Shown: piece by piece, positions 779-43,649 of the stretch
How positions within the stretch are numbered: position 1 is the stretch's first letter
Layout: each line of letters begins with the position of its first letter
Virus record (IMG/VR): IMGVR_UViG_3300001357_000001
Coordinates: 1 to 64,000 of that record
From: a virus
Taxonomy: Duplodnaviria > Heunggongvirae > Uroviricota > Caudoviricetes
Length of the DNA: 64,000 bases
Direction: 5' to 3' (one strand)
Translations under genes and position numbers: made by a program
Notes under the pieces: generated by a model
What the model saw: the letters and a program-made list of their open reading frames with translations, nothing else
Databases searched by the model: none
What the model was told of the DNA's origin: nothing

Positions 779-957
779 GTAGGTGTGATTATTAAGAGAT
801 AAACTTTATTCGGAGAACTGAACAAAAATTTTAAAAGAAAAAGAAGGGTGGAAACTTTTTAAGAATAAATGAATATAATAAAAAACAGGGAAACCGAAAA
901 CTGATTAGAGTAGGTAAAATAGTAAATAACTTTTACAAAAAAACAAGATTAATTATC

Positions 958-1665: not shown

Positions 1666-2209
1666 TTAATTATGTGGGTGGGTTCTTTTTCTAAAATTTT
1701 CTAACACAATAGTTAATTCGGAGAGGGAACTACACTTACACATAAAGGACACAAATATAAAACGTTTTAACTGAGAAATTAAAATAGAATGAATAATTTG
1801 ATAATTAGTATAAACTTTATTTTGAAAAACGAATAAAATGTTTTATATTTGTTGTTATAAGTATGTATTATTTTTGTTTTACCATATAAAAAGAATATAT
1901 TATGAAGGAATTAAATTTAAAATTAAAAACTAAGATTGTTGATTGTGAGGTTTCTTCAATTAAAACCAATATAATAATTGAAGAACCTGATATTGATATT
2001 GTAATACCGAGGAAAATCAGAAAGTCAGTTGAAAAACTTTTGATTGAAGAATTAAAAAACTCAAAACAAAAATAATATTATTTATAACGTATGGTTGTAT
2101 GAAACGTAGCGATAATAACGCACAAAATTTGATTAAATGTACCGACCTAGCAATATTAGTTTTTGAGGGTTGGCAAAAATAAATTTGAAAAATTTAAAAA
2201 GATACAAAT

Positions 2210-3184
2210 ATGAATGTACTTAGTTTATTTGACGGCATGAGCTGTGGACAAATAGCACTTAATAGATGTGGAATAAAATACGATAACTACTTTGCAAGTG
2301 AGATTGATAAATATGCGATAAAAGTAACACAAGCTAACTACCCAAACACAAAACAGCTTGGCAGTATTACAGAGCTTGACGGAACAAAACTTCCTAAAAT
2401 TGATGTAATGTTTGGTGGTAGCCCCTGCCAAAGTTTTAGTGTTGCAGGAGATGGTACTGGGTTTGGTGGTAAAAGTGGTTTATTTTGGGAATACGTAAGA
2501 ATATTAAAGGAAGTAAAGCCAACTTATTTTTTGCTCGAAAATGTAGTAATGAAAAAAGAATGGGAGCAGATTATTACCGATGCGGTAGGTGTAGAACCAA
2601 TATTAATTAACAGCAACTTGGTTAGTGGGCAAAATAGAAAACGCCTATATTGGACAAATATACCAAACGTAAAACAACCCATTGATAAGGGTATTTTGCT
2701 AAAAGATGTGCTACAGGACAATGTAGATGAAAAATACTTTTATAGTGAAAAGGCTATTAGTTACCTTGACCGAAATAAAATAAATAAGAGGTTTGCAAAC
2801 TACAGCGATAGCGAAAAAGCAAATTGCTTGACTGCTGTTTTTAGCAAAAGCCTACCTTATAATGTTTATGTTGACCAAGAAAAGAGTTATTGCTTGACAA
2901 GCAACTATGGTAATATGGCTTGCATTAACTACAATAAGGGACAAGGACAAATAGTGTTTGATAATAAAACTATTAGAAGATTAACACCTATTGAGTGTGA
3001 GAGATTGCAAACAGTGCCCGACAATTACACTAACCACGTAAGTAACACCCAAAGGTATAAGATGATTGGTAATGGATGGACGGTTGATGTAATTGTACAT
3101 ATTTTTAACCAAATGGCTGCGATAGCAGACAAAGAGGGGGAGGAAAAACTAATATTGCGACACAACAGCACCAATGTTGATTAA
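2210..3184 (+). CDS. DNA cytosine-5 methyltransferase (Dcm family)
   Basis: Motif I LFDGMSCG; motif IV GGSPCQSFSVAG; motif VI LLENV; C-terminal TRD plus motif IX-like QxGNG(W). Confidence 0.9.
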   Translation: MNVLSLFDGMSCGQIALNRCGIKYDNYFASEIDKYAIKVTQANYPNTKQLGSITELDGTKLPKIDVMFGGSPCQSFSVAGDGTGFGGKSGLFWEYVRILKEVKPTYFLLENVVMKKEWEQIITDAVGVEPILINSNLVSGQNRKRLYWTNIPNVKQPIDKGILLKDVLQDNVDEKYFYSEKAISYLDRNKINKRFANYSDSEKANCLTAVFSKSLPYNVYVDQEKSYCLTSNYGNMACINYNKGQGQIVFDNKTIRRLTPIECERLQTVPDNYTNHVSNTQRYKMIGNGWTVDVIVHIFNQMAAIADKEGEEKLILRHNSTNVD

Positions 3185-3297
3185 ATGAACGAACCTAGCT
3201 ATGTTTTATACAACGTGTTAGCAACTGTGCCTTATTTGGTACAACGAACGACAATTACAAGCATAGCAAAGGTTTATAAATTGATTTAGGCATTGTT

Positions 3298-3390
3298 GCT
3301 AACGGTTGGGTGTATGAGAAGGTTTGCTTGTAGAAGTTTTCAAATTACCACAAATGTTGATAGCAAACTTTCTTATACACCTTGTTATGC
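3298..3390. repeat. attC-like imperfect palindromic element, copy 2, downstream of the Dcm gene
   Basis: GCTAACGGTTGGGTGTATGAGAAGGTTTGC ... GCAAACTTTCTTATACACCTTGTTATGC; arms complementary with two conserved mismatch positions. Confidence 0.55.
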
Positions 3391-3498
3391 TCTCGTGCCG
3401 ATTTATTAAGTACAAAACTTAATTTGGAACACTAAAGAAAAACAAAAAAAATTTAGGTGGAAAATTAAAATTTGAATATTTATATATAAAAGAAAACG

Positions 3499-3918
3499 AT
3501 GAAAGATTTGAAGAAATTTATAGCAACTACCATAAGAGAATATTTGAATGAATCAACAAAAGTATTTGGTTATAGAAATACTAATTCTAATAAAATCGGC
3601 AAATATGGTACATTTTATAATGTGAAAAATACAAATCATTACAATACTAATATCGTAGAATTAAATTTTAAAAATCCATTAATTATTGAAGATAGCGATG
3701 TATATAATTTTGAAGGTCTTACCTTAGAATATTTATTTTGGAAATGGTTTCCTGAATTAGAAGATACTTACGTAATTATGGCTAAAAAACAAGGGATTGA
3801 AACTGGTGAATTAATTGATAAATTAGTTACTAAAGAAGCAATCAAAAGAGGTTATGATGGTATCATTATGTGTGATTTAGAAATTGTTGATTTAACAACT
3901 CATCCAAACTTTAAATAA
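3499..3918 (+). CDS. hypothetical protein
   Basis: ORF of 139 aa on the same strand as its neighbours. Confidence 0.4.
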   Translation: MKDLKKFIATTIREYLNESTKVFGYRNTNSNKIGKYGTFYNVKNTNHYNTNIVELNFKNPLIIEDSDVYNFEGLTLEYLFWKWFPELEDTYVIMAKKQGIETGELIDKLVTKEAIKRGYDGIIMCDLEIVDLTTHPNFK

Positions 3919-3974
3919 GTATGTAGGGAAAATTCTTTTTGTTTTTCATCACAAATGTTAAATCGAAGAACTGA

Positions 3975-4045
3975 ACTAAGGCATGGAGCATAACGGCTAT
4001 GGGTATGGAGTCGGTTTTTTACGGGTTTGAAACACTAAAATTAAA
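3975..4045. repeat. truncated copy of the palindromic element (left half only)
   Basis: GCATAACGGCTATGGGTATGG ... GTTTGAAACACTAA resembles the 5' half of the element at 651-778. Confidence 0.35.
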
Positions 4046-4048
4046 TAT

Positions 4049-4315
4049 ATGAATAAGGTAGATATAATTAGAAAGCACATAGGTGACGATGACTTTTACG
4101 ATATGAACGGAACATCAATGTTAACCAACATTTTGAACGCAATGGAAGAGTATAAGGAACAGGAAGTAAAAAACTGCTCTATACCCGATGTTAGCCAACA
4201 ACGTGAACAGTTAATTGATTTTGCTATTCGATTTGACGGTGGAAATACAAGAACAAATAGAAAGGCTTACGAGCAAGAAGTTGACGACTACCTAAAATCA
4301 ATTAATTGTGGCTAA
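4049..4315 (+). CDS. hypothetical protein
   Basis: ORF of 88 aa. Confidence 0.35.
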   Translation: MNKVDIIRKHIGDDDFYDMNGTSMLTNILNAMEEYKEQEVKNCSIPDVSQQREQLIDFAIRFDGGNTRTNRKAYEQEVDDYLKSINCG

Positions 4316-4352
4316 CTATTATATATAAAACTTAATATTTAAAATATTAATC

Positions 4353-5159
4353 ATGAGTAATTTAGCTGATAATTTTTTAATGATTTATATTGAAAAGTTA
4401 AAATATTTTAATTATTCTAAACATACTATTAGAGATTATTCGCATTATTTTGAAAAATTTTTGATTTATGTTAATAAATATCCTCAACATCTAACATCTA
4501 ATGATTTCGAGAATTATTTATTAAACTATAAATTTTCATCAGTTTCTCAACAAAATCAAATAATTAACGCATTAAAGTTTGGATATGAAAAAGTTTTAAA
4601 TAAAAAATATAATAAAATTGATTTTCAAAGACCAAGAACCGAGAAAAAAATACCACAAATAATTGATAAAGAATTTCTATTAAATAGAATACCAAAAATC
4701 AAAAATATTAAACATAAGACAATAATATCTTTAGCATTTAGTGTAGGATTAAGAGTTTCAGAAGTAATTAATTTAAAAATAAAAGATATTGATTCTAAAA
4801 GAATGATAATTAATATTTATCAAGGTAAGGGTAAAAAGGATAGAATTGTTCCGTTGTCAGAAAACATTTTAAATTTATTGAGAGAATATCATAAACAATA
4901 TAAGCCAAATGAATATTTATTTAATGGTCAAAAATTACAACAATATTCACCAGAAAGTTGTAATAAAATAGTAAAAAAATATTTAGGTAATGAATATCAT
5001 TTTCATTTACTTAGACATAGTTGTTTTACTACATTATTAGAATCAGGAACAGATTTAAGAATAATTCAAAAATTAGCTGGTCATTCATCAAGTAAAACTA
5101 CGGAAATTTATACTCATGTAAGCACTAATTTATTATCCAAAATTAATTTACCAATATAA
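4353..5159 (+). CDS. Tyrosine site-specific recombinase (XerC/D-like phage integrase family)
   Basis: C-terminal catalytic signature HLLRHSCFTTLLESGTDLRIIQKLAGHSSSKTTEIYTHV (HxxR ... Y); conserved Arg in the SVGLRVSE box. Confidence 0.85.
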   Translation: MSNLADNFLMIYIEKLKYFNYSKHTIRDYSHYFEKFLIYVNKYPQHLTSNDFENYLLNYKFSSVSQQNQIINALKFGYEKVLNKKYNKIDFQRPRTEKKIPQIIDKEFLLNRIPKIKNIKHKTIISLAFSVGLRVSEVINLKIKDIDSKRMIINIYQGKGKKDRIVPLSENILNLLREYHKQYKPNEYLFNGQKLQQYSPESCNKIVKKYLGNEYHFHLLRHSCFTTLLESGTDLRIIQKLAGHSSSKTTEIYTHVSTNLLSKINLPI

Positions 5160-5160
5160 T

Positions 5161-5190
5161 TGTAACATTTCACAACATTTTTCGTATAAT
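5161..5190 (+). promoter_or_regulatory. phage promoter-like motif, -35 TTGTAACA / extended -10 TTTCGTATAAT
   Basis: TGTAACATTTCACAACATTTTTCGTATAAT lies about 18 nt upstream of the ATG at 5208. Confidence 0.55.
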
Positions 5191-30807: not shown

Positions 30808-31257
30808 TTAGTTTTTTACTAAATCAATATTTTCATAAATATTTCCAATAATCTCAAATAATTCCAAATCATGTTTACCTAAATAATTATTCACAATTGG
30901 AAATGTTTTTTTATTATCATAAGCAGGAACTCTAAAATAAAAACATGGTATATCAACATCATGTTTACCAATAGTTCTACGAGCAATTCCATATTCACAT
31001 ATTACAATAATAACCTGACCACCGTCATTTTTTAATGAAATAATGTCGCCTTCATAGATATCATTATTATTTTTATCCTGTAATCCAGAAAACTGCATTA
31101 ATTTACAATTTTCATCTTGACTTGTGAAAACAGGTACTTCATTATCACCATAAATATATGTTTCCCAATAACCATTAGCACCAAAAACAAAATATAATTC
31201 GCCTTGATACCACATTAATTCACCATCCCATACTCTAAATTTAAATCTGTCTTTCAT
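30808..31257 (-). CDS. YopX-family phage protein
   Basis: N-terminal RFKFRVWDGELMWY and C-terminal EIIGNIYEN match the YopX consensus. Confidence 0.55.
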   Translation of the reverse strand: MKDRFKFRVWDGELMWYQGELYFVFGANGYWETYIYGDNEVPVFTSQDENCKLMQFSGLQDKNNNDIYEGDIISLKNDGGQVIIVICEYGIARRTIGKHDVDIPCFYFRVPAYDNKKTFPIVNNYLGKHDLELFEIIGNIYENIDLVKN

Positions 31258-31258
31258 A

Positions 31259-32149
31259 TTATAAATGATTTTGTTGAAAATATTCTATTAATGAAATTTC
31301 TTCAAAAGAAGTTCTTTCAGGACTTCTGCTAGTTGGTGCAAATTGTTGTTGTACTGCATCAACATACATAGTATATGTAAAGTCATCACCCATATAAAAC
31401 TGATTCCAACCTTTTTCAGTAAAATATCTCTTTAAATTAAGTTGTTCAATTGCCAGATTATCAAAAGATAAATGATGTGTATTGAAGTACTTAGGCAAGT
31501 ACTTATACCACTTATCTATTTTTTCTTTAATATCATCTGAATGATTGTCATAGTACTCAACACCATTTCCGAATTCTTTATAACCTAATAACAATACTTT
31601 TTGATAAGGTAATTCAGATAGCTTATTCAGAATATCAATATCATGAACACCAATAATTAAATGTAATACAATATTATTACTATATCTCATTAAATCTTTA
31701 ATTACATTAAAATTATCATTAGTGATTGAAATTCCTAAACCCTTTATGAAATTATTATTCAATAAATTAATTAATAAAACCTTATGTCTTGATAAATGAG
31801 ATTGGTTAACGGTTAGATTAGCGATAATACCTCTATCTTTCAACCAATTTAAGAAAACCATTAATTCTGGATGTGAAAGTGGATTACCACCACCAATTGC
31901 CATTTCAATACCTGAAGGTAAATTAATTAATTGCTGTTTTAATGCATATAAATCGGCATGTTCACCATTAATACTTGATTTTTCATGGCAAAACTCACAA
32001 TTCATATCACAATAATTTGTGATTTTACAATCAATACTTTCTGGGAATTTGATAATAGGTTTACCATCAAATTCCCTTGTTTTAGTACCGTCATTTAAGA
32101 TTGTAACATCAACATTACCATTTTTATAATTATATAGGTATTCTGGCAT
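31259..32149 (-). CDS. Radical SAM enzyme, function unknown
   Basis: CxxxCxxC cluster (CDMNCEFC) near the N-terminus; GGGNPL SAM-binding glycine motif. Confidence 0.7.
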   Translation of the reverse strand: MPEYLYNYKNGNVDVTILNDGTKTREFDGKPIIKFPESIDCKITNYCDMNCEFCHEKSSINGEHADLYALKQQLINLPSGIEMAIGGGNPLSHPELMVFLNWLKDRGIIANLTVNQSHLSRHKVLLINLLNNNFIKGLGISITNDNFNVIKDLMRYSNNIVLHLIIGVHDIDILNKLSELPYQKVLLLGYKEFGNGVEYYDNHSDDIKEKIDKWYKYLPKYFNTHHLSFDNLAIEQLNLKRYFTEKGWNQFYMGDDFTYTMYVDAVQQQFAPTSRSPERTSFEEISLIEYFQQNHL

Positions 32150-32699: not shown

Positions 32700-33320
32700 C
32701 TAGCCAATATATGTTGATAAATAATCAAGTGCTTGACGAATAATTTCAATTTCATCATTAAATTGTCCTAATCCTCGATTACACTTATCACATAACAAAC
32801 CTCGAACTTTACCTGTATTATGATTATGGTCAACTACTAATTTTTTATTTAATTCATCCTGATGTGTTTTACATATCATACAACAACTATTTTGGTCATT
32901 AAATATTTTATTATAATCTTCAAGTGAAATTCCATATTTTTTTCTTAGTTTATAATCTTTGATTTTATCCTGATTATTCCTCCTATATTTTTTATAAACT
33001 TTTTTTCTTTCTTCGGGACTATTAGATGGACATTCTTTAATCCTTTCTTTATTATCGAAATAATATTGTTGTTGATATTCTTTTATTTTTTCTTTATTCT
33101 TATTTTTATATTCCTGTTGTTGTAATTTAATTTTTTCTTTATTTTTTAAATCATACTTAATTCTTGTCTCTCTAATTCTTTCTTTATTATCAATGCGATA
33201 TTGTTTAATTTTTTCTTTATTTTTTAATCGATATTGTCTATTGTATTCACGTTTTTCTTCTTTTGTTTGCATAATAAAATAATTTAAATTTTCGACATAT
33301 TTATTTTTATATAAATACAC
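32700..33320 (-). CDS. Recombination endonuclease VII (T4 gp49 family) with an N-terminal Lys-rich tandem-repeat region
   Basis: CCMICKTHQDELNKKLVVDHNHNTGKVRGLLCDKCNRGLGQF matches the Endonuclease_7 signature; the N-terminus carries NKEKIK.Y repeats. Confidence 0.8.
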   Translation of the reverse strand: MYLYKNKYVENLNYFIMQTKEEKREYNRQYRLKNKEKIKQYRIDNKERIRETRIKYDLKNKEKIKLQQQEYKNKNKEKIKEYQQQYYFDNKERIKECPSNSPEERKKVYKKYRRNNQDKIKDYKLRKKYGISLEDYNKIFNDQNSCCMICKTHQDELNKKLVVDHNHNTGKVRGLLCDKCNRGLGQFNDEIEIIRQALDYLSTYIG

Positions 33321-33351: not shown

Positions 33352-34551
33352 TTATAAATCTATTAATCTCGATTCAATTATTTTAAGTAATTCACTCATT
33401 GGACGTTCCTCATCGTTTTCACAATTAATTGCTTTTTCGATTGGAAGCTCGTTTTCTTGAATTTTTTTGATTTGTTTTTCAATTTCTTCAACTTCATAAT
33501 CAATATAATCGGATTCGAAATATGATTGTTCAATAATATCAATTTTCCTGTTTTCATATTTTGCAATTGCAAATGGAAAATATTCACACACTCTCATTTT
33601 GCTGTGGTCATAATCAGGAACTGCAACAACATTTGCAGGATTCACATAACATACAAGAACAGTACTATCATTATTTGCAAATGAATTAACGTAAACAGTT
33701 GCTCCGACATGTAAACCATTTGAACAATCTCTGCGGAAATCAGCATCACATTCTTTTCTGTTTTGTTTAACAGGAACACCTAATTCAATATGCATTTTTC
33801 GTGTATGCATGTCGGTAAAAACAGGAACATTCTTTTCTTCTTCTTCGGTACTGGAATTAAATATAGCATCGAATAATTCCTGAAGATTTCCAAGTATTTC
33901 AACACCTTTTTCTTTTTCATCCCATTTTTCAGCAGTACTCACTTTTGTGCTGTTGAAAGTATTGTCTTCAATATTTCTATACACAATGTGTTTCTTAGGA
34001 CTTTCTTTCCAAGTCTTTTTCACATGAAGATAACGATTACTAATGAATTCTGCAAATCTTGTTTCATCAGAGTCTTGGTCGTTTTTCTTATCATATACTG
34101 CTTTATAAACAACCATATAACCATTATCTGTCAATACGAAGTCATGTGTTTTAATGAAGTCAAAAAGTACTGTACGTATTCTCTTATCAGGATTTAACAT
34201 CAATAATTTCCAGAAGTTAATAATTGCATCTAAAGGATATTCATTTTCATGATATTCTTTAATTACTTCAACCAATGTTTCTGGAACAGGAGTATTGAAA
34301 CCCGCAAGATATACTTCACCTGTTTCAGGGTCGTTTTCAAGTCCTGCCATAATAGCAACACGTGTTTTTTCATTCAATAAACCAAGAACATTTTTTATGT
34401 TCTCGTCAGTTGGGTCTTCTTTTGCCTTTAAAGTCATTTTAAATAACTTATCAGCTTCTTCTGATGAACCACAGTTTTTCTGGCGAAGTTTGCCATTAAG
34501 ACTGATTTTCACCATGTTTCCGATTTTAATTACGTTAATGTCTTTTTTCAT
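33352..34551 (-). CDS. rIIB: rIIB-like protein
   Basis: LFDFIKTHDFVLTDNGYMVVYKAV, CSNGLHVGATVY and LVCYVNPANVVAVPDYDHSKMRVCEY resemble T4 rIIB C-terminal blocks, recalled from memory. Confidence 0.5.
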   Translation of the reverse strand: MKKDINVIKIGNMVKISLNGKLRQKNCGSSEEADKLFKMTLKAKEDPTDENIKNVLGLLNEKTRVAIMAGLENDPETGEVYLAGFNTPVPETLVEVIKEYHENEYPLDAIINFWKLLMLNPDKRIRTVLFDFIKTHDFVLTDNGYMVVYKAVYDKKNDQDSDETRFAEFISNRYLHVKKTWKESPKKHIVYRNIEDNTFNSTKVSTAEKWDEKEKGVEILGNLQELFDAIFNSSTEEEEKNVPVFTDMHTRKMHIELGVPVKQNRKECDADFRRDCSNGLHVGATVYVNSFANNDSTVLVCYVNPANVVAVPDYDHSKMRVCEYFPFAIAKYENRKIDIIEQSYFESDYIDYEVEEIEKQIKKIQENELPIEKAINCENDEERPMSELLKIIESRLIDL

Positions 34552-34574: not shown

Positions 34575-34604
34575 TTATACGATATTAAATTTAAAATGTT
34601 ACAA
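34575..34604 (-). promoter_or_regulatory. phage promoter-like motif upstream of rIIB
   Basis: reverse complement of TTATACGATATTAAATTTAAAATGTTACAA. Confidence 0.55.
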
Positions 34605-34746
34605 TTTATATTGGTAAATTAATCTTTGATAATAAATTTGTATTCACTTGTGTGTATATTTCAGTGGTTTTATATGAATATACTTATAATCAGTTAGTTT
34701 ACCCATTTTTGTAATACTTTTTATTAATATAACAATAAGTTAGGCT

Positions 34747-34887
34747 TCATTTGCCAACGCTCTTAAATATCTTTTTATACCATTTGTTTTCTTTTCTGCA
34801 TTCAGGGCAGCCACTTTTCCCACTTGGGGTTGTTGCGTATTTTCCGTGCTTTTTACAGTTATTCCATCTATAATTTCCTAATTTCAT
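34747..34887 (-). CDS. 46 aa zinc-ribbon protein (cassette ORF; not in the ORF track)
   Basis: MKLGNYRWNNCKKHGKY ... CPECRK; starts 31 nt after an attC-like GTTAGGC core. Confidence 0.35.
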   Translation of the reverse strand: MKLGNYRWNNCKKHGKYATTPSGKSGCPECRKENKWYKKIFKSVGK

Positions 34888-34918
34888 AATCTTGTTTTTA
34901 TCCCACCGCACAAAAACG

Positions 34919-35050
34919 AAAGCCTAACAATGTACATAGGTAATTTGCCGTTTTGTTTTGGTAGTTTAGTTTATAATTTAATCTTTATCTCGTTCTAGTT
35001 GCTTCGGTTCGTCAAGCAGGGGCAAACATACCCATGTACTCAACGTTAGG
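34919..35050. repeat. attC-like element A
   Basis: GCCTAAC-aatGTACATaGGTAaTTTGCC ... GGCAAAcaTACCcATGTACtcaac-GTTAGGC; sits between the stop at 35070 and the start at 34887. Confidence 0.6.
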
Positions 35051-35069
35051 CATAAAAATTCCCGCTTTG

Positions 35070-35339
35070 TTAGCGGTCATTGCCGAAAACATCATCTTTC
35101 CATTTTTCCCATTCATCGGAAACATCAGAATCATCGTGCACACCAGATAATATACAACCATATCCGTTATTGTAAAGAAAGTCTGGCAAAGGCAACGAAC
35201 CGCTAACAACAAATAAACGTAATAAAAGTTTACGTGCTTGTAATTCAGTGATTTCGCCCCTTTCGAGCCATTGTGCTACTTCTAAAATTTTGTCTTTCAT
35301 ATCTTTTACTACGTTTATTTGTGAACCGTTATGGTGCAT
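35070..35339 (-). CDS. hypothetical protein (cassette ORF)
   Basis: 89 aa, coupled to the ORF at 35339-35596. Confidence 0.4.
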   Translation of the reverse strand: MHHNGSQINVVKDMKDKILEVAQWLERGEITELQARKLLLRLFVVSGSLPLPDFLYNNGYGCILSGVHDDSDVSDEWEKWKDDVFGNDR

Positions 35340-35596
35340 TAAGGAATATCCAACTTAAATTTTACCTCCTTAATATCAATCCATCCATCATATTCGTCTG
35401 GTCTATGCCAGTTTTGAGAATTATCCTCTTGGAACATACCATCTTTATAAAACCCAAATCCTATCGTGAGTCCTTCGTTGCTTATAAGCATTACCCTTGT
35501 CATATTAACTGGGCGTTGTGTCATATCGTTCATAAAAAATAACGCACCATAACATTTTGTATAAATCAGTGGCGTTATGTGCTTAATTTTAACCAC
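35339..35596 (-). CDS. hypothetical protein (cassette ORF)
   Basis: 85 aa. Confidence 0.4.
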   Translation of the reverse strand: MVKIKHITPLIYTKCYGALFFMNDMTQRPVNMTRVMLISNEGLTIGFGFYKDGMFQEDNSQNWHRPDEYDGWIDIKEVKFKLDIP

Positions 35597-35880
35597 TTAG
35601 CTACTAAATTGCTTTTGTGCGGTTCGACAGTTAGTAGCTCCTAATCGCCACCGCTTCATACAATTTACCGTTATGCACAATTAAATTATTACTTATAGTG
35701 TTTATTATAGTATTCTTCACCTACTTGCTCTTTTAAGTATTCATCAGCGTCCATTCCATATAAATCATAGTCGGTCAATTTATCTGTGTTATTGTTCCAC
35801 ATACCAACAAAAGCAAGTATCAAGGCAAGTAATATTATTAAAGCTATTGTTATTCCTATCCATTCCATAATTTTAAAAGT

Positions 35881-36002
35881 ACCTAACAATGTGTATAAGC
35901 AATAGCCGTCAGGCGTTTTTACTATTGCAGTTGTTTAATTATTAATTTTGTTTCTATCTAGTTGGTTCGTGTAGGCTACTGCTCATACACTCGTCCGTTA
36001 GC
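35881..36002. repeat. attC-like element B
   Basis: ACCTAAC-aatGTGTATaAGCAaTAGCC ... GGCTActgCTcATACACtcgtcc-GTTAGCA; compensatory changes relative to element A preserve the hairpin; the 3' core overlaps the stop of the gene at 36005. Confidence 0.55.
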
Positions 36003-36004
36003 AT

Positions 36005-36361
36005 TCATTTGCCAACGCACAGCTTAAAGCAACTAAATTTTTTCCTGTGTTCATTTCCTTTTTCATCAATAAGCACATATCTTTTACGACCTCTCTTGCC
36101 TACGTAATCTACAATTTCGCACTCTCCTATGTTTTCAATTGTAGCCTTTTTTCCTACCAAATGCAATCCTCCTAAACTTTCACCTTTCATCGCATGTTTA
36201 ATATTACGTTTTGGTTGTCGCTTTTCAATTGAATTATAACATCCTTTCTGCATTGTTCTAGGATAGCCTACTGCTTCTCCAATATATTCACCTGTTTGTT
36301 CATCTAAGATACCATCAAGTATCATGTCTGCTATGTCTCCCATAATATTTAATTTTTGCAC
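36005..36361 (-). CDS. hypothetical protein (cassette ORF; true start probably the ATG at 36343)
   Basis: C-terminus KLCVGK is encoded by the same nucleotides (GCGTTGGCAAATGA) as the C-terminus of the 46 aa ORF. Confidence 0.4.
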   Translation of the reverse strand: MQKLNIMGDIADMILDGILDEQTGEYIGEAVGYPRTMQKGCYNSIEKRQPKRNIKHAMKGESLGGLHLVGKKATIENIGECEIVDYVGKRGRKRYVLIDEKGNEHRKKFSCFKLCVGK

Positions 36362-36380
36362 CGCCCACGCTCAAAACGAA

Positions 36381-36480
36381 ACGCTAACAAGCGGTCATAG
36401 TTAATAAAGCCAATTAAGTTTAGTTCGTTGTAGGTTGCGGTAGTGGGTGGCTTTACTAACCATACCGCAAGCCGTTAGGC
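36381..36480. repeat. attC-like element C
   Basis: CGCTAAC-aaGCGGTcATaGTTAaTAAAGCCA ... TGGCTTTAcTAACcATACCGCaagcc-GTTAGGC. Confidence 0.6.
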
Positions 36481-36490
36481 ACAATAAAAA

Positions 36491-36637
36491 TTACTGCTCC
36501 AACTCTTTTAGTTTAGCTTCATTTTCCTTAATCAACTTATCAAGTAAACCTTTCATTACTGGTGGTAGTTGTACCTGCGGTGCATTTAATAACTTTGCGA
36601 CTTCAATATTCATTTCTAATAATTCTTGTAGTTTCAT
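36491..36637 (-). CDS. 48 aa helical protein (cassette ORF; not in the ORF track)
   Basis: MKLQELLEMNIEVAKLLNAPQVQLPPVMKGLLDKLIKENEAKLKELEQ. Confidence 0.3.
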   Translation of the reverse strand: MKLQELLEMNIEVAKLLNAPQVQLPPVMKGLLDKLIKENEAKLKELEQ

Positions 36638-36810
36638 ATTCGTAATTTTTACAGATGCCTAACAGCAAGTATAAAACATGCCTGTCGTGCATCTAAGTTA
36701 ATATTTATGTTAATTTCAAATTAATTGTTTCAATTAAAGTTTGTGTTAGCACGTTTCATACTTGCGTACCGTTGTAGCTTAATTGACAGCTCGCCATCAC
36801 ACATGCTCCA

Positions 36811-37083
36811 TTAGCAACAAATAATTTTACTATATCCTTTTCCTCCATTAAGTGCATAAGGTATATTTTTACAACTGTGCTTATCATCGCAAACCAATTT
36901 TCCACTATAATCTCCATCTTCATCTTTTACAACAATCACTTCATAACCCCATTCACTTTTTAGTTTATCACCAACTAAAATTGGTTGCTTATTATCGTCA
37001 TAAATTCCCGTAAAATTATCATTTCCTAACAATGTATAAAGTTCATTTCTTTGGTCTTTTTGCTTATTATTTTCTGTACTCAT
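36811..37083 (-). CDS. hypothetical protein (cassette ORF)
   Basis: 90 aa. Confidence 0.4.
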   Translation of the reverse strand: MSTENNKQKDQRNELYTLLGNDNFTGIYDDNKQPILVGDKLKSEWGYEVIVVKDEDGDYSGKLVCDDKHSCKNIPYALNGGKGYSKIICC

Positions 37084-37730
37084 ATTTTCCTGTATTTTAA
37101 TTAAATTAGTTGCTATTTCAAAGTCGAAACGAAACCTTATATTAGTACGTTAGTGCGTGTTCCGTTACTACATTCAATATATTTTGAAGTAGTTCTAATT
37201 CGGTTTCTTTTCTTTCAAGGATGTTGTTTATATCAGTTCGTTTCCGTTCACATTCAGTTTTTGCTACTTCTCTATTGTAGTAAGAAACCTCTATTTCTAA
37301 TTCCTCAATTTTCTTTGATAAGTAATTTAGTTCGTGTTCCATATCCATAATTTTACAATTTCATATTACCATCCGTTATAAACAAATAAAATTATTCAGT
37401 TTTAGTTTTACCAATTTACACATATCAATAATTAGTGTCCAAGCATTTGTATATATTAATATACCGTCATCTTTTTGTTTGAATCTCATTCCTAATTTAC
37501 CTTTCGTTAATTTTTCTGGTTCTTTTAAGTCCATAATTTTATCAGATTTATAATATGGCATTAGGTAATTCACAAAAATCAGGTATATTAGGTGTTTTAT
37601 TATCTACACAAATTGAACTATTTGATTTTTCACAGATAAAACTGTAAAGCCATTTGTCTTTTTTACAATAAGGACAATCTGTACAATTTTTTATTGTTAA
37701 AGTAAGTTTTTTCATAATTATTAACGCCAC

Positions 37731-37841
37731 ATAACAATGTATATAAGGCATTGCCTCTGTGGTCTTTTTATATTTATAATTCTGTCCATTCTATCAAAGT
37801 CAGTGAAGGCAACGCCTCATATTATCAACATTTTCGTTAGA
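37731..37841. repeat. attC-like element E
   Basis: ACATAAC-aaTGTaTATAAGGCaTTGCCT ... AGGCAACGCCTCATATTATCAACAttttc-GTTAGAA. Confidence 0.5.
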
Positions 37842-37846
37842 AGTTT

Positions 37847-37999
37847 TTATTTTTGCCCACGCTCTTCAAAATACTCAACCAAAATAGTTTCTACCATATT
37901 ATTGAATGACGGTCTATTTTGTCTTTCCTTTTCTTTCTTAAGTTTATCAACTAACCAATCATTTTTGTCGGTTAGTTTTAATGATATTCGTTTAGACAT
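37847..37999 (-). CDS. ribbon-helix-helix (CopG/Arc-like) DNA-binding protein, 50 aa; not in the ORF track
   Basis: MSKRISLKLTDKNDWLVDKLKKEKERQNRPSFNNMVETILVEYFEERGQK; start overlaps the stop of the upstream gene by 8 nt. Confidence 0.45.
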   Translation of the reverse strand: MSKRISLKLTDKNDWLVDKLKKEKERQNRPSFNNMVETILVEYFEERGQK

Positions 38000-38435
38000 A
38001 TTGTTCTGATTTAATTCTTACTTCAATATCTGCAATTACAAAATCCCAACGTCTTTGGAACAAATCACCATTAGCACGTAATTCACCATAATAGTCTTTC
38101 ATATCATGTGCCATGTGTTCATCTCCAAATTGATAGTGGTCTAATTGAACACCAGCCAAAACATCATCAGTATTCCATTGTTCCCAATTTTTTCTAACAA
38201 TCTTTTCAAATTCATCGTTGTTTTCAGGGAGTGAAGTTCCTATTTCTTGAATGAACATATCCAACCAATATGGGACCATATGTGAACCTTCGTCATCCAA
38301 ATCCATTAATCTATATTCAGATAACTTCATTTCAAGTATGTTACAAATAAAGTCAAATCCGTTTACTCTTGTAATAACACCATCGTCATTTACATCAATT
38401 TCAGTTTCGCTAAATGGAAGTTTAAATGTTTTCAT
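37992..38435 (-). CDS. hypothetical protein, co-transcribed with the RHH gene; possible toxin-antitoxin-like pair
   Basis: 147 aa; a promoter variant TTGAAACA ... GACGTATAAAT lies upstream at 38450-38490. Confidence 0.4.
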   Translation of the reverse strand: MKTFKLPFSETEIDVNDDGVITRVNGFDFICNILEMKLSEYRLMDLDDEGSHMVPYWLDMFIQEIGTSLPENNDEFEKIVRKNWEQWNTDDVLAGVQLDHYQFGDEHMAHDMKDYYGELRANGDLFQRRWDFVIADIEVRIKSEQYV

Positions 38436-38582
38436 AATCTTATCGTTTTATTAATTTATACGTCAAAGGTAATACTTTTGTTTCAAATAAACAAATATTT
38501 TTTGAATTATTTTCCCTACCTAAAAAATAAAAACTTCTTTATTGCTTCGTATTGAAATTCAGGTAGATAAACCGCATCAGCC

Positions 38583-38710
38583 GATAACAAGGTGTATATG
38601 TAATGTGAGGTTCGGTGGTGTATTCAACATTTATACTTCTAATCAAGTTCTGTGGTTAAATCAGATGTAGTGTTTCAAATCTCACACTACATATACACCC
38701 AACCGTTGTG
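38583..38710. repeat. attC-like palindromic element, inverted copy of the 651-778 element
   Basis: reverse complement is about 90% identical to 657-785. Confidence 0.6.
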
Positions 38711-39223
38711 TGTAAGTGCTACATTTGTGCATTTAATGAAAGTTTCTGCAAGTTTGACCATAATTAAATATTTTCCGACCCTCTACCTCTACGCATATCA
38801 TGTATCTCCCATGCAATTGAAGCTGCAAGATTTTTTGAATAGGTGCATCCTGAAGTGTAGCATTTGTCTTTTCTTACATCTTTTTCAGCCTCTTCTTCCC
38901 ATTTTTTTTTTGTTGGATAAATCGGGCATTGTAAACATGGGCAAATAGTATATTCCCATTTTAATTCTTTCCTTTCAAAATTTATTGTATTTTCCATCTC
39001 AAACTTTCTTTATGTATGAATGATTTTTCAAAACAATATGGGCATTGCATCACATCGTCTTGCTCCCTCATTGTGTTTAAATCAAAAAATGCCATCGCAC
39101 AAAATATTTAATTATTACTCTATTCATTTTATCAACATTCTGCTAATTTGACCGCACCAGACACACAACACAAAATATAGTGCATAGCCGATTAAACATT
39201 TGTTTTTCATTGTCAACGCTCAC

Positions 39224-39514
39224 TTAACACCATCTTATTTTATTTTCAGTCAAAAAATAATGAGTTCTACATTTAAAAGTGTTGCCAATACTTGGTTTTA
39301 CTGTTATTTTTTCATCTTTGATATTAATTACCCATCCTCTATTCCTATTCAAATCGTGATGCAAATAAACTTCATTTCCACATCCACAAGGGCATTGATG
39401 TACTGTGTTAATTTCATCTCTCCACACTTTTACATATATAATTCCATATTCTTGTTCAGCTTTTACTGGCAAATCCCTTACTGCTTTATATTTTAATCCT
39501 GCTAATTTCTCCAT
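39224..39514 (-). CDS. small zinc-binding protein
   Basis: HQCPCGCGNEV ... CRTH. Confidence 0.35.
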   Translation of the reverse strand: MEKLAGLKYKAVRDLPVKAEQEYGIIYVKVWRDEINTVHQCPCGCGNEVYLHHDLNRNRGWVINIKDEKITVKPSIGNTFKCRTHYFLTENKIRWC

Positions 39515-40114
39515 CGCTTTAATTTTAAATACTAATCATATACCTAACCATTAGGCGTAATTGATACTATCTTCATCACAAAAACTTAATCCACCATCGT
39601 CAAATAAAACTATTGTATTACTTTTTGTTGCCCCATATCTGTGAAATTCACCTAATCTATCACCAACGATTACTCTATCACCTTGCTTAAAACAACTACG
39701 CCTAACAATATCTATATTGCATGGCTTTTCGGCTTTTGAATCTTTTGCACTCATATCAATATTTTTTTTAATTTGAAACTATGTGGCTTTGCTGTTGAAG
39801 CCACGACAACATAGATTAACCGTTAGCAAACATTTGGCTTACGTATTCTATTTAATATTTCCTCATTTGTTTGTAAATCGGAAGATGTAACATCATCACC
39901 TATAATAGCATCATCTCTACCTAAATTATATGCCCTCAATAAAAGTGGGTTAGGATTCCACATCTTTGCCCTACCATCAAGTTCATTATTAAACCCCCAC
40001 ATATAAGTTTCCAATAAAAGTTTGTTTTGTTCGTTCATATCTTTTATCTTTCAATTAAGTTTAGTTTTAAAATACTCACGGACGGTTATACTCGTCCGTT
40101 ATAAACAAATAAAA

Positions 40115-40354
40115 TTATTCGCTCAACCTCTTATAAGCTTTCATACATATCTTACAAGCATCTGCAACCAATAGCAGTTCGCCATCCATTTTATCAAATA
40201 GTTCAGCTTTGCCATCTTCATTTATTTGTCTAAACTTACCACATAGGGTAGTATTCCTTTTATTCCCTCCTGCACTCATTTTTGGAACGTAAGCATGTTG
40301 TTTGCTCATTCGGTGCGTATTTTCACTTTCTAAGGTTTTCCAAAGTACTTCCAT
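40115..40354 (-). CDS. hypothetical protein (cassette ORF flanked by exact repeats)
   Basis: 5' leader TTATAAATCTGATAAAATTATGG and 3' region CCGTTATAAACAAATAAAATTATTC are identical to those of the ORF at 37376-37573. Confidence 0.4.
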   Translation of the reverse strand: MEVLWKTLESENTHRMSKQHAYVPKMSAGGNKRNTTLCGKFRQINEDGKAELFDKMDGELLLVADACKICMKAYKRLSE

Positions 40355-40485
40355 AATTTTATCAGATTTATAACAAGCAACATAAGTAATTGCCTGTCAT
40401 GTTTATACCAAATTTTAAAGTTAATACTTGTATGGTCGCACTAACCATACCTACGAGCGTTAGGCAGAATAAAAAATTACAGTTG

Positions 40486-42774
40486 CTATGATAAATCCAT
40501 AGCAAGCTGTAAAATTGTTATTTGTTCTTCTTCTAAGTTTTCTGCATTCCAAGGAAGATTAAAATAACTTAATGTTTTAGTATTTTTCTTTTGCAATTCT
40601 TCAACTTCATCTACCCATTCACAAAATTCTTTTTGTTCTTTAGTAGGTTTTACTTTTTGAAAATCAAAATATTGACCTAATTCACTTCTATAATGTTGTA
40701 TTCTACTATCTCTAATATTATTAGGAATTGTATTGATAAAGGCATTAATTTTCTCAATCTTCTTTCCCCAATTATCATCAATTTTATTAATAAAACCTTT
40801 ACGATAAAAATCGGCAAGACCTTGATATTTTTCAACAACACTATATATTTGAAAATATTTCAATATCATGTCTTCTTTTCTCGGCAACATATAGGTAAAG
40901 AAATCTTTTATGTGTCTGGCATTCTTACAATACTTCAAATATTTAGTATTGTTTTTCGATACCTGTATAAACATAATGCTCTTTTTATCACTATCACTTT
41001 TCAAATTTTTTCTATAATCAATACGTCTGACAACAGCATCAGCATCAAATAAGAGTTTAAACAACCTAACTGCTTCATCAAGTTTATAATCATCATCAGT
41101 AGTACCATAGAAAATCGGCATATTATAATCAAATAAATTACCTAACTCAACTCTGTCTCTGGAATAACCGCCAATAAATTTAACAGGAATAGTCTTTTTT
41201 CTAAGTTCAGAACTAAGTTCGTTTTTACGTTTACGACTTTCAATAAATTCTTGTGGTACTTCTAATTCATCATAATCAATTCCATTCTCACGAATGATAT
41301 CGAAATATTCTTCTTGCATATCAATTAATTCCTGAACAAAAGGTAGTGTATTACCTTTGTCATCAACAATATCATCAAGATGTACATTGAATACGTCAGC
41401 AATATCAGAACGTGACCACTTACTAATTATTCTTTTCTTAATAATATAGTATGTCTCGAACTCACTCTTAAGATATGATTGCTTAATCATTTTACGATTA
41501 AACTCACCATCAACATATACTATGTTATTCTTATTTACAATCGTCTCATATCCACCTTCAAATCCGTCTCTACTTGCATAATAACCATATCTTCTTCTAG
41601 GCTTTTTACCATAGGTTTTTGCATCAAAGAAAAATCTAAACAATTGTTTGTCATTAGGCATTTTAGTAAATTGATACTTGAAGTTTGAGAAGTCAATATC
41701 TTTTTGAGTAATTAGATTTCCTACGTACATTGACTTGTTATTAGGAAAAACTAATTTACCGAAGTCATGCTTAACCTGAAAATATTCCTTTAATGTAACA
41801 ATGTCTTCATATTGCTTACTAATTAAAGTAATAATTTCATTCTTAGCTGCTTCTAACTTCTTCTTCAACATTTTGATTGTAGTCTCACTATAATCAAGAC
41901 TCTCACGACTAACTGTAACACCTATGTCACCTACTTCAAGTTTTAGTGCAATTGGTAGACTGTAATCGCTTGAATGTAAATCTAATGCATCATAATCAAT
42001 CGGATAAGCGACTTTACCTAAACACACGTGCATGTTGTTACTATAGTCATCACCACGAAATAAGAAGTTCTTACCTCTGATTATCAGATAATCATTAGTT
42101 AATGTATCATGTTGATATGTGTCTTCAAAACCTTCAAAAATGATGTTTTCGAAGTAATAAAGTTGTCTCACCATTTCTTTAGCAAAAGTGCTAATATCTT
42201 TTTCAAGTACTGGAACTTGGATTTCAGTACCATTTCTTTCTTCTGTTGGTTCTTCATGAAGTTTTGAAATTCGAGGTGTATGTTTACCTTCATATATATG
42301 ATATATGTATTTAATACCATTAAAAACAGTTATAATTTGATATGAATTATCATATTCTGCTTCACCTAAACCTATTTTACGTTTATATGCTAACGGGGTC
42401 TTCGAACCCAACCCAAACGCACCAATCTGGTCATTACTATCACGTTTAGTACTACTAAACATCACAGAAAATATTGTATCTATTCTTTGTGGTGATATTC
42501 CAACACCATAATCAATAAAACTAATATAATGAGTACCCGTTGTATTATCTTGATGTTTTTTTATTAAAACAGGGGCATTAGCTCCTGCTTCAACATGACT
42601 ATCAAAACAATTCGATGTTATCTCACGAACAACACTACCAATAGGATTACTATAAATGTTTTTTGAAAACATTTGAAAAATAATGCTTTGTGAATCATTA
42701 GATAATGTAATATCTTTTTCTTCGGTTGTAGTCAAAACATCAACATCGGAATAACTATTAATATCGTATTTCAT
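40486..42774 (-). CDS. rIIA: rIIA-like protein with an N-terminal GHKL (Hsp90/MORC-type) ATPase domain
   Basis: N box EITSNCFDS, G1 box FIDYGVGIS, G2 box IGAFGLGSKT; 762 aa, comparable in size to T4 rIIA. Confidence 0.55.
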   Translation of the reverse strand: MKYDINSYSDVDVLTTTEEKDITLSNDSQSIIFQMFSKNIYSNPIGSVVREITSNCFDSHVEAGANAPVLIKKHQDNTTGTHYISFIDYGVGISPQRIDTIFSVMFSSTKRDSNDQIGAFGLGSKTPLAYKRKIGLGEAEYDNSYQIITVFNGIKYIYHIYEGKHTPRISKLHEEPTEERNGTEIQVPVLEKDISTFAKEMVRQLYYFENIIFEGFEDTYQHDTLTNDYLIIRGKNFLFRGDDYSNNMHVCLGKVAYPIDYDALDLHSSDYSLPIALKLEVGDIGVTVSRESLDYSETTIKMLKKKLEAAKNEIITLISKQYEDIVTLKEYFQVKHDFGKLVFPNNKSMYVGNLITQKDIDFSNFKYQFTKMPNDKQLFRFFFDAKTYGKKPRRRYGYYASRDGFEGGYETIVNKNNIVYVDGEFNRKMIKQSYLKSEFETYYIIKKRIISKWSRSDIADVFNVHLDDIVDDKGNTLPFVQELIDMQEEYFDIIRENGIDYDELEVPQEFIESRKRKNELSSELRKKTIPVKFIGGYSRDRVELGNLFDYNMPIFYGTTDDDYKLDEAVRLFKLLFDADAVVRRIDYRKNLKSDSDKKSIMFIQVSKNNTKYLKYCKNARHIKDFFTYMLPRKEDMILKYFQIYSVVEKYQGLADFYRKGFINKIDDNWGKKIEKINAFINTIPNNIRDSRIQHYRSELGQYFDFQKVKPTKEQKEFCEWVDEVEELQKKNTKTLSYFNLPWNAENLEEEQITILQLAMDLS

Positions 42775-42827: not shown

Positions 42828-43649
42828 TCATTTAATCGTCTTTTTTATTGAAAATCCTTTACCACAGTCTTTACATTTAAATCTAATAGAATTATTTCTT
42901 TCACCATTTTTTAATATATTAGGACTATTACAAGTAGAACAACACATATTTCTATCTAAAACTTTATTAACTGGTTTATAATTTAAACATTTTTCTGCTT
43001 TTCTTTTTAATGATATAGTTGAATCATTATACATAAATTTAATTAATTTAAGTATTTCAGATGTTTTAATAAATGATAAATTATAATATGTTTGTTTACC
43101 TTTTCCTTTAGGTGGTTTTACAATAATTTTCCACGATTTCATATCATGTGTTTTCAAATAGGAATTAATTTCATATATAAATTCTTTAGCAACACAACTA
43201 AATTCGATGACTATTAAATTTCTTCTTTTGGCTCTTCTATAAACACTACCATCAGCATCAAAAAATCCTCTAATAAAATGTCGTATTAATTCTGATTTAA
43301 TATTCGGAAGTCTTAATTCATTTGCATTCTCATATGATTTTCTTGGGTATATACCATTTGATAATAAATCCTCATATAATTCTTTAGATGATTTTGAAAG
43401 ATATATTTGTTTTTTCGAATTTTCATTATATTTTGAATAATCGAAGTTACCTACATTAAAAAAAGGGAAATATTCTCTTAATTGATAAATTAAATCTTTA
43501 TCGATAATATTAACACTAATTTTGGTTAAATATCTTATTCTACCCGTCTTCTCCTTATATGTTGTTATTGTACCATCACCATAAAGAAAACCTAATAAAT
43601 ATGCTTTTTCCTGACTATCTATTCTTTTTAATTCATTATTGTACTTCAT
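42828..43649 (-). CDS. LAGLIDADG homing endonuclease (double motif) with a C-terminal zinc ribbon
   Basis: YLLGFLYGDGTI and IRGFFDADGSV; C-terminal CCSTCNSP ... CKDCGKGF. Confidence 0.75.
   Translation of the reverse strand: MKYNNELKRIDSQEKAYLLGFLYGDGTITTYKEKTGRIRYLTKISVNIIDKDLIYQLREYFPFFNVGNFDYSKYNENSKKQIYLSKSSKELYEDLLSNGIYPRKSYENANELRLPNIKSELIRHFIRGFFDADGSVYRRAKRRNLIVIEFSCVAKEFIYEINSYLKTHDMKSWKIIVKPPKGKGKQTYYNLSFIKTSEILKLIKFMYNDSTISLKRKAEKCLNYKPVNKVLDRNMCCSTCNSPNILKNGERNNSIRFKCKDCGKGFSIKKTIK

Follow-up and report, generated by a model that had tools for sequence, protein, structure and literature searches.

The canonical cleavage position of integrons and their complementary cassette ends are established in the general integron literature, and complementary ends were reportedly recognized by Hall and Stokes, in 1991–1997, as a classical property of 59-base elements. 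When the CTX phage integrates at dif, an Xer-type recombinase acts on a hairpin formed from one DNA strand. Integrons were nearly absent from Bacteroidota in IntegronFinder surveys (PMC9024848), and only 21 of 10,705 phage genomes carried integrons or clusters of at least two consecutive attC sites with no nearby integrase (CALINs), with 2–3 canonical attC predictions per phage and no phage-specific recombinase family described (Qi et al., 2023; PMC9892861). In Bacteroidales, the recombinase-associated rAID-1 system consists of an XerD-like recombinase by co-oriented arrays of short genes, with motifs “reminiscent of integrons” (Ross et al., 2019, 10.1101/471110; PMC12247911); the recombinase is at the 5′ end and is followed, in the same direction, by two or more low-GC genes for immunity proteins. 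The promoter early stem-loops (PeSLs) of T4-type phages combine a terminator with an early sigma-70 promoter, flank ORFs as direct repeats, and act via homologous recombination, with no dedicated recombinase (Arbiol, 2010, PMC2839356; Comeau, 2014, PMC4122927). Here, we analyzed a stretch of 64,000 nt from a phage of the Caudoviricetes (positions 1 to 64,000 of the IMG/VR record IMGVR_UViG_3300001357_000001, hereafter the window; source contig, 348,137 bp) and, in particular, the block of small open reading frames (ORFs) between its rIIA and rIIB genes. A full-text literature search found no paper describing the phage system reported below, which is not proof of absence.

We consider it likely that the rIIA–rIIB block is one of two mobile cassette arrays in a phage-borne, integron-like system. 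Comparison of loci revealed the anatomy and covariation of its sites, the complementarity of each cassette's own ends, a strand asymmetry, linkage to a recombinase, an attI-like site, and, in cultured relatives, polymorphisms of cassette size at ...AAC|. In the window, rIIA and rIIB are separated by 5.9 kb, and all genes of the 30–64 kb region are on the minus strand. The GC content of the block (34600–40485) is 32.1% against 28.4% in the rest of the window, in agreement with a preceding sequence-only reading that had found it GC-richer than its flanks; it is the top 5.9-kb GC window of the 64 kb (+2.7 standard deviations). About 15 small ORFs had been counted there; small ORFs are indeed present, but a count of 18, on the minus strand, is plausible. 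The flanks shared by some of them had been taken for boundaries of cassette exchange, and our analysis supports this view of cassettes, with the block as a variable insertion between rIIA and rIIB. The relatives reached via rIIA (55% identity) did not carry the same genes in this place: the rIIA–rIIB gap was ~100 bp and held none in locus L120, and in locus L121 it was 2.8 kb with other small ORFs. None of the small ORFs of the window was found near rIIA/rIIB in either locus. Since both loci differ at this point and lack the ORFs of the window, the rIIA–rIIB junction is, judging by these sequences, a hypervariable insertion site. Arrays of the same element as in the window were present at this junction in loci L047 and L048.

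Along the gene strand of the block, nnnTAAC follows most stop codons, and GTTAnnn follows ~90–125 nt further on, before the next ATG, with arms of ~30 nt that pair. Eleven such elements of 100–130 nt were identified between rIIA and rIIB, consisting of nnnTAAC, an internal loop, a covarying 16-bp stem, and GTTAnnn. The RNAalifold consensus of 66 aligned elements comprised a 5-bp outer stem (TAACG/TGTTA), an asymmetric internal loop, and the 16-bp stem, with compensatory changes in 13 of the 21 pairs. The stems contained 180 G.T against 8 A.C pairs (22:1); therefore, one strand, referred to below as the folding strand, folds much better than the other. A covariance model (CM) built from the 66-element alignment detected 16 elements in the window at E<0.01, including 11 within 34.9–40.5 kb and 4 on the plus strand at 650–4126, among plus-strand genes. 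A pattern derived from the element ends matched 117 stretches in IMG/VR (about one was estimated by chance) and 118 stretches in species-representative genomes, almost all of them from Bacteroidota or Ignavibacteria. The search of the 33–43 kb region against Rfam at E<=10 returned chance matches only, with nothing comparable to the elements.

Megablast against cultured phages found no close relative and gave two short matches only, one to a whole element and one to a cassette 5′ end. Element eN with its flanks (35866–36002) was 91% identical over 137 nt to Cellulophaga phage phi18:3, between gp035 and gp034, and the 5′ end of cassette R (34882–34930) was 100% identical over 49 nt to “Rhodobacteraceae phage LS06-2018-MD05”; thus, cassette ends are common to unrelated phages. 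Further elements are located in phi18:3 upstream of the 428-aa integrase gp037.

The relation between the two ends of a cassette was evaluated on 179 units lying between consecutive same-strand elements. The triplet after GTTA was the perfect complement of the triplet before the next TAAC in 130 of the 179 cassettes, with a mean of 2.48/3 (null 8%), compared with 1.06/3 within one element and 1.00/3 for random pairs. The complementarity of own ends spans ~15 nt and includes a conserved G.T at offset 10 in 123 of 168 cassettes; the ORFs are therefore bracketed by inverted ends (GTTAnnnn...nnnnTAAC). The cassettes of the window that obey this rule are A, C, J, L, M, N, P, Q′, and R, together with the unit 3391–3987(+).

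The inverted ends account for each repeat listed in the sequence-only reading, which had recognized neither the attC-like folded sites at these boundaries, nor the pairing of the two flanks, nor the tyrosine recombinase with its larger array 30 kb away. In the first cassette type (ORFs 40115–40354 and 37376–37534), the sequences described as a “leader” and a “3′ region” are the two ends, and TTATAAATCTGATAAAATTAT pairs with ATAATTTTATTTGTTTATAA. Both repeats, given as 23 and 25 bp, proved exact, at 24 nt (37530–37553 and 40350–40373, the second copy having been placed at 40349–40371) and 26 nt (37372–37397 and 40095–40120), respectively. In the second type (ORFs 36005–36343 and 34747–34887), the two pairing ends are the TTGTTAGG..TTTCGTTTT motif and the GCGTTGGCAAATGA end. 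An identical coding end had been attributed to two ORFs; GCGTTGGCAAATGA is indeed shared, and the 22-nt repeat that contains it (34739–34760/35997–36018) is 91% identical. TTGTTAG..TTTCGTTTT...GGTGGG precedes two ORFs (starts at 34887 and 36343), and an incomplete third copy lies near 37140; this is fewer than the “several” starts proposed.

Clusters of similar hairpin bodies indicated which flank belongs to the hairpin. The modal downstream triplet (R′) was found in 67% of the cluster members and the modal upstream triplet (R″) in 22%, which argues that the hairpin travels with the downstream ORF and that the exchange point is at TAAC. The first model, with a crossover at G|TTA and the hairpin owned by the upstream ORF, was dropped in view of the linkage of hairpins to the downstream flank and of the AAC| junctions found in the Freya phages, described below. 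The data agree with the integron scheme only if the units are read along the folding strand.

An iterative hidden Markov model search over all ORFs of the fetched loci identified a recombinase encoded directly after the plus-strand elements of the window; its orthologues lay directly after arrays, co-oriented with them, in 13 other loci. The protein was nearest to archaeal XerA/XerC-like structures and next to VchIntI4. Its best NCBIfam match was NF040815 (“tyrosine recombinase/integron integrase”) with 182 bits, below the cut-off of 220; the chromosomal relatives L169 and L183 pass this model with 242 and 226 bits. The family comprises more than 7,800 homologues at E<=1e-10, the best 120 of which were 68–100% identical and 263–304 aa long. 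The recombinase gene has a GC content of 20.6%, far under the window mean of 28.8%, and yet its protein retains 68–84% identity over more than 100 clusters (90% identity) from environmental contigs among these best 120 homologues.

The recombinase gene marks the end of array 1, which is larger than array 2, the rIIA–rIIB block, and extends at least 5.6 kb upstream of the window (L241 1–5648). The 10 kb upstream of the gene contain at least 16 elements, all co-oriented. A recombinase relative was encoded in 210 of 233 candidate stretches from IMG/VR. For an anchored test, 80 IMG/VR loci were chosen by their recombinase relatives and scanned with a simple Python scanner, the opposite strand being used as a control. 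Same-strand elements numbered 261 upstream (305 kb) and 12 downstream (422 kb) of the recombinase gene, a 30-fold excess, whereas the opposite strand had 8 upstream and 6 downstream (273 vs. 14 overall). At least two upstream elements were present in 42 of the 48 loci having at least 3 kb of upstream sequence. In addition, an attI-like sequence, TAAC|TATTATATATAAA, precedes the recombinase gene and is conserved in the anchored loci: in almost all of them, the last nnnTAAC is followed by TAT(T/A)ATATATAAA, 36–52 nt before the recombinase ATG, with a variable triplet in front of TAAC.

In array 2, 11 family-specific sites were present, and no recombinase was encoded within 29 kb. The array closes with GCCTAAC (34745–34739) and a degenerate attI-like copy, and ~100 nt further lies a relic of the recombinase gene, covering its final 34 nt, the stop codon, and the following 8 nt. 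The order in locus L047 is rIIA, six elements, and an intact recombinase gene, and six elements precede rIIB in L048. Given the relic at the array end and the order in these two loci, array 2 is best read as a second platform with a deleted recombinase gene.

The cargo of small ORFs consisted mostly of ORFans. Pfam and PHROG searches with the 18 small ORFs yielded nothing beyond DUF6527 in ORF D and two weak zinc-ribbon matches, and domain searches found no immunity domains in them. The 46-aa zinc ribbon of the sequence-only reading exists as a Cys-rich ORF of that length, but its zinc-ribbon-type match in PHROG is weak; the ribbon-helix-helix label given to a 50-aa ORF had no support from Pfam or PHROG. 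Homologues of ORFs B, D, H, and Q were located within arrays of other phages.

Cultured phages provided natural variants. A tblastn search detected homologues of the recombinase, 34–40% identical and annotated as “integrase,” in Polaribacter phages Freya_1 to Freya_10 and Leef_1 and in Cellulophaga phages Ingeline_1 to Ingeline_8. With Freya_10 as the reference, we compared seven of these ten Freya phages (genomes of 43,978 to 48,920 bp). They were 99.4–100% identical over the aligned stretches and differed by blocks of 0.3–4.9 kb just before the integrase gene: relative to Freya_10, one 304-nt cassette was missing from Freya_9, 3.2 kb from Freya_5, and 4.9 kb from Freya_1, and Freya_6 had a 441-nt cassette absent from Freya_10. 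All junctions read ...nnn(C/T)AAC|, with AAC microhomology and a constant right flank, ACCCCTATAAC..., 49 nt before the integrase ATG. The paper describing the Freya phages interpreted their integrases as indicating that they are temperate (PMC8776804). The isolates (L324–L332, MT732463-72) came from one enrichment campaign, differ only in which and how many cassettes adjoin the integrase gene, and represent a ready experimental system.

The orientation of genes relative to the folding strand helped to distinguish between action in DNA and in RNA. In the viral arrays, those of the window among them, ORFs shared the folding strand in 96 of 98 cases, and the genome collection contained two classes of arrays. 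The first comprised short contigs of metagenome-assembled genomes that resembled phage arrays and had ORFs on the folding strand, whereas the second comprised arrays on Bacteroidota contigs, with genes opposite to the folding strand in 18 of 18 cases. The latter had cassettes of 0.5–2 kb and were found mostly on contigs >100 kb or complete chromosomes, with carriers including Bacteroidales bacterium CF, Prolixibacteraceae, Winogradskyella, and Hanstruepera; six of them (L151, L161, L173, L213, L218, and L228) were on contigs of only 3.5–15 kb. The own-end rule, with its G.T on the element strand, also applied to chromosomal Bacteroidota arrays. Since the elements keep no fixed orientation with respect to transcription, their structure most likely functions in DNA rather than in mRNA. 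Arrays L131, L156, L169, L173, L183, L186, L190, L213, L218, and L229 from Bacteroidota genomes have elements of the same family, with genes antisense to the folding strand, and their cargo, inspected by eye, includes TIR-like, caspase-like, DUF262-like, SMI1/KNR4-like, and ADP-ribosylglycohydrolase-like proteins.

The same data bear on the possibility that the hairpins act in mRNA, as sites of RNase III-type processing, stabilizers, or translation signals, and that the complementary ends are long-range stems around ORFs. This would agree with the folding strand being the sense strand in phage arrays, with conserved G.U pairs typical of RNA helices, and with the 3′ box located ~12 nt before many start codons. 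However, the 18 chromosomal arrays invariably have genes antisense to the folding strand, so that their mRNAs would carry A.C mismatches, and neither the recombinase linkage nor the cassette indels at AAC| would be explained, which makes an mRNA function very improbable. RNA structure as the main role was rejected on the basis of the opposite gene orientation in the chromosomal arrays; the elements could still have a secondary RNA role in phages. Another explanation, somewhat less improbable but still unlikely, is that the elements are conserved regulatory motifs between which genes turn over by homologous recombination, as at PeSLs, and that the recombinase is unrelated to this process, being, for example, a lysogeny integrase. 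The setting, a hyperplastic region in a phage with rIIA and rIIB, speaks for this explanation; recurring similar elements could pair, hairpin subfamilies are common to unrelated phages, and PeSLs have been described as mediating this kind of shuffling (PMC4122927, PMC2839356). Nevertheless, sigma-70-like promoters (33 vs. 33.3 expected) and terminator-like sites (3 vs. 2.1) were not enriched in a scan that did not include Bacteroidota promoters. Homologous exchange also does not predict cassette ends complementary over ~15 nt with a fixed G.T, the 22:1 asymmetry of wobble pairs between strands, the 30-fold enrichment of elements on the upstream side of a single recombinase family, or the exact AAC| junctions in Freya. 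We find it hardest to credit that the elements are non-autonomous transposable hairpin repeats, such as miniature inverted-repeat transposable elements or repetitive extragenic palindromic elements, among ordinary resident genes. Quasi-palindromes of 100–130 nt are indeed spread over several genomic loci and over numerous unrelated phages and bacteria, but they form same-strand arrays rather than scattered copies, have no target-site duplications around them, and are linked to no HUH or DDE transposase; moreover, complementarity spans the ORF and not the element, and the ORFs between elements differ among close relatives.

Several observations weigh against the interpretation of the block as an integron-like cassette array. 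All evidence on recombination for the phage of the window is comparative, and three independent assemblies of this phage had no cassette differences in their shared part. The hairpins that form the Freya sites differ somewhat in build, and the Freya integrase is only 40% identical to the recombinase of the window. The own-end rule fails for units G-H, I, B, D, E/F, and K of the window, which look decayed. ORFs C (39551–39754), L (36811–37083), and Q (35070–35339) have their starts within or ahead of an element and continue across its right arm. Default cmsearch filters missed element-bearing loci (L302, L245, L262, L278, and others), so that the anchored counts rest on the simpler scanner; for example, L302 1306–1434 was missed although it is identical to L010 1518–1646 and scores >100 bits elsewhere. 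With the TIGR02249 integron-integrase model, the recombinase reached 147 bits, under the cut-off of 265. The comparison with VchIntI4 indicated that the IntI-specific insertion is absent, because the match is split and the recombinase has 37 aa where VchIntI4 has 85. No conserved extrahelical bases were seen in the 66 elements, whose consensus stem is continuous; three conserved G.T pairs occur where integrons have extrahelical bases. Finally, the cargo of the phage arrays lies on the folding strand, contrary to the canonical bottom-strand rule. As these last three defining features (the IntI insertion, extrahelical bases, and cargo orientation) differ, we would not file the system as an integron sensu stricto.

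Two independent assemblies of the phage break within the arrays, L242 (Logan SRR4030107) inside array 1 and L243 (JGI Elkhorn Slough mat 3300000353) inside array 2; such breaks could reflect repeats or population heterogeneity. ORFs that read through elements, in varying reading frames, are also found in several IMG/VR loci, and the homologue of ORF Q in L083 contains an element.

Under the favored interpretation, a cassette unit would comprise, along the folding strand, C/G, the asymmetric loop, the 16-bp hairpin, TGTTA with ~11 nt, the ORF, the complement of the 11 nt, and TAA|C. The recombinase would bind the folded single-stranded site and exchange strands within TAAC, so that cassettes could be excised, inserted, and reshuffled. 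New cassettes would enter at the attI-like site just upstream of the recombinase gene, and the recombinase encoded at 4353 may serve array 2 in trans, as for attC clusters without an integrase. We infer the catalysis by the 268-aa recombinase, the single-stranded DNA substrate, and the exact position of cleavage from the comparisons described above.

With less assurance, but still leaning in favor, we suggest a broader interpretation, namely that the system is a self-encoded phage counterpart of the integron in Bacteroidota: an independent or ancestral branch with a short Xer-like recombinase, an attI-like site, hairpin-bounded arrays, reversed cargo, and rAID-1-type kin, which exchanges accessory genes. 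If so, virulent and temperate phages would be able to take up and store accessory genes (methylases and perhaps anti-defence genes, for instance) and to trade them among themselves and with the bacteria they infect. Integrons are considered a bacterial device, and the system considered here would be both encoded by the phage itself and abundant. It would explain in concrete terms how hyperplastic regions of large phages come to be rich in ORFans and would open a path along which genes could pass between phages and hosts, and its cassettes would represent a candidate list of anti-defence genes. It would also be mechanistically informative, with no IntI insertion, strand choice marked by G.T, and inverted cargo orientation. 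Cultured phage–host pairs, namely those of Polaribacter phage Freya and Cellulophaga phage Ingeline, make experiments possible.

The positions of the sites, cassettes, and genes are listed in Table 1. Several other genes adjoin the block. A LAGLIDADG homing endonuclease gene (42828–43649, minus strand; Pfam LAGLIDADG_3, 6.8e-17) lies directly upstream of rIIA. Just downstream of rIIB, 32700–33320 on the minus strand encodes an Endonuclease VII domain (2e-25) with an N-terminal half of K/E/N-rich near-repeats (..NKEKIK..), and this stretch has the lowest GC content and the strongest AT skew in the region. Also downstream of rIIB are minus-strand genes for a radical SAM protein (31259–32149; weak Pfam match, CxxxCxxC motif) and a YopX-family protein (30808–31257).

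Table 1. Features of the two cassette arrays and their borders in the 64,000-nt window
Feature	Position	Strand	Description
Array 1, window part	650–4126	+	Elements 650–778, 1740–1860, 3297–3390, 3988–4126; C5 DNA methylase 2210–3184
attI-like junction GGCTAAC|TATTATATATAAAAC	4310–4331	+	21 nt before recombinase ATG region; conserved in anchored loci
Xer-like tyrosine recombinase, 268 aa	4353–5159	+	Pfam Phage_integrase 1.8e-38, SAM-like domain; PDB XerA 4.8e-35, IntI4 1.7e-29; array association
rIIB, 399-aa ORF	33352–34551	-	PHROG “RIIB” 5e-35, Pfam Phage_T4_rIIB; downstream border of array 2
Relic of recombinase gene 3′ end	34594–34638	-	42/45 identical to 5127–5170; blastn E 2e-12
Degenerate attI-like TTATTGTTATATTAATAAAAAG	34717–34738	-	Right after last TAAC of array 2; by-eye resemblance to TAAC|TATTATATATAAA, unscored
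Cassette R, last	34739–34928	-	5′ GTTAGGC, 46-aa Cys-rich ORF 34747–34887, 3′ GCCTAAC
Element eQ	34922–35051	-	GCCTAAC ... GTTAGGC; CM 62.5 bits
Element eP	35201–35334	-	CCATAAC ... GTTAGCG; CM 68.5 bits, inverted repeat; closes cassette P (7/7); inside ORF Q
Element eO	35547–35676	-	GCATAAC ... GTTATGG; CM 82 bits
Element eN	35881–36003	-	TGCTAAC ... GTTAGGT; CM 89.2 bits
Element eM	36382–36480	-	GCCTAAC ... GTTAGCG; CM 49.8 bits; closes cassette M (ORF 36491–36637), ends 7/7
Element eL	36657–36777	-	... GTTAGGC; CM 69.7 bits
Element eK	37024–37155	-	CACTAAC ... GTTAGGA; CM 45.6 bits; start of ORF L in loop
Cassette J	37375–37553	-	Both ends as in cassette A, ORF 37376–37534 unrelated; 5′ hairpin lost
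Element eH	37729–37842	-	TTCTAAC ... GTTATGT; CM 65 bits, fold
Element eFG	38582–38711	-	CM 101.3 bits; inverted repeat; sequence like element 650–778(+)
Minimal junction	39542–39556	-	GCCTAAT-G-GTTAGGT; closes cassette C, own ends complementary with usual G.T
Element eB	39700–39828	-	TGCTAAC ... GTTAGGC; CM 62.1 bits, fold; start of ORF C in loop
Cassette A	40098–40374	-	5′ GTTATAA, ORF 40115–40354, 3′ TTATAAC; imperfect ~21-nt inverted ends, 1-nt indel
Element e1	40368–40465	-	R″ GCCTAAC ... R′ GTTATAA; weak arms; CM R1 23.7 bits, E 0.002
rIIA, 762-aa ORF	40486–42774	-	PHROG “RIIA lysis inhibitor” 1e-66, HATPase_c; upstream border of array 2

Among the described systems, PeSLs are the closest concept for large lytic phages and share with the locus studied here small ORFans in hyperplastic regions of large phages and conserved stem-loops that mark indel boundaries. 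Unlike PeSLs, the phage elements showed no promoter or terminator enrichment in the scan mentioned above, and they are associated with inverted cassette ends and a linked tyrosine recombinase. The Xer system used by the CTX phage at dif resembles the present one in that the enzyme of the window is nearest to XerA/XerC-like structures; however, it inserts a whole phage genome into one chromosomal site and assembles no cassette arrays. The phage CALINs are attC-type clusters in virulent phages, including a Polaribacter phage, and their DNA methyltransferase cargo can be compared with the C5 methylase of array 1 (PMC9892861). The present family differs from them in that its arrays exceed 10 sites and it has a recombinase of its own, and the CM found no member of this element family in Polaribacter phage P12002L, for which attC sites have been published.

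The chromosomal arrays resemble rAID-1 in phylum, recombinase type, co-directional layout, and “integron-like” repeats, a likeness drawn from its description and not from the repeat sequence. Their recombinases are 375–388 aa long, 36–48% identical to the phage enzyme, located at the gene-5′ end (L169, L183, and L229), and co-directional with the genes. In contrast, the recombinase of the window is shorter than these chromosomal relatives, lacking an N-terminal part of ~100 aa, and lies at the gene-3′ end; the cargo consists of phage ORFans and not of immunity genes, the array is GC-richer and not poorer than its surroundings, and the carrier is a phage. A homologue search toward the Bacteroides rAID-1 recombinase returned environmental relatives only. 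A link between the phage system and the rAID-1 immunity arrays of gut Bacteroidales would be probable.

The closest parallels are with integrons. Both have same-strand arrays of small, promoter-poor ORFs split by imperfect palindromes, and, as in attC, conservation is confined to the AAC/GTT boxes, with an adjoining unpaired spacer, a second stem, and a variable loop (features per PMC8946536). The cassette boundary falls inside a conserved box, which leaves two complementary ends; one strand folds preferentially; and the box frequently contains a stop codon. On reading along the folding strand, the array is followed by the primary site and the recombinase gene on the same strand, as with intI. 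The chromosomal Bacteroidota arrays share the canonical geometry, since the bottom strand folds in integrons (PMC8946536). The phage system differs in its 268-aa, Xer-like recombinase without the IntI insertion, in an outer stem of ~15 bp rather than 7, in the TAAC/GTTA box, in a strand bias arising from G.T pairs and an asymmetric internal loop, and in its carrier, a large phage with rIIA and rIIB. Since the phage encodes its own recombinase for cassettes, the comparison suggests that Bacteroidota phages swap accessory genes as bacteria swap resistance genes.

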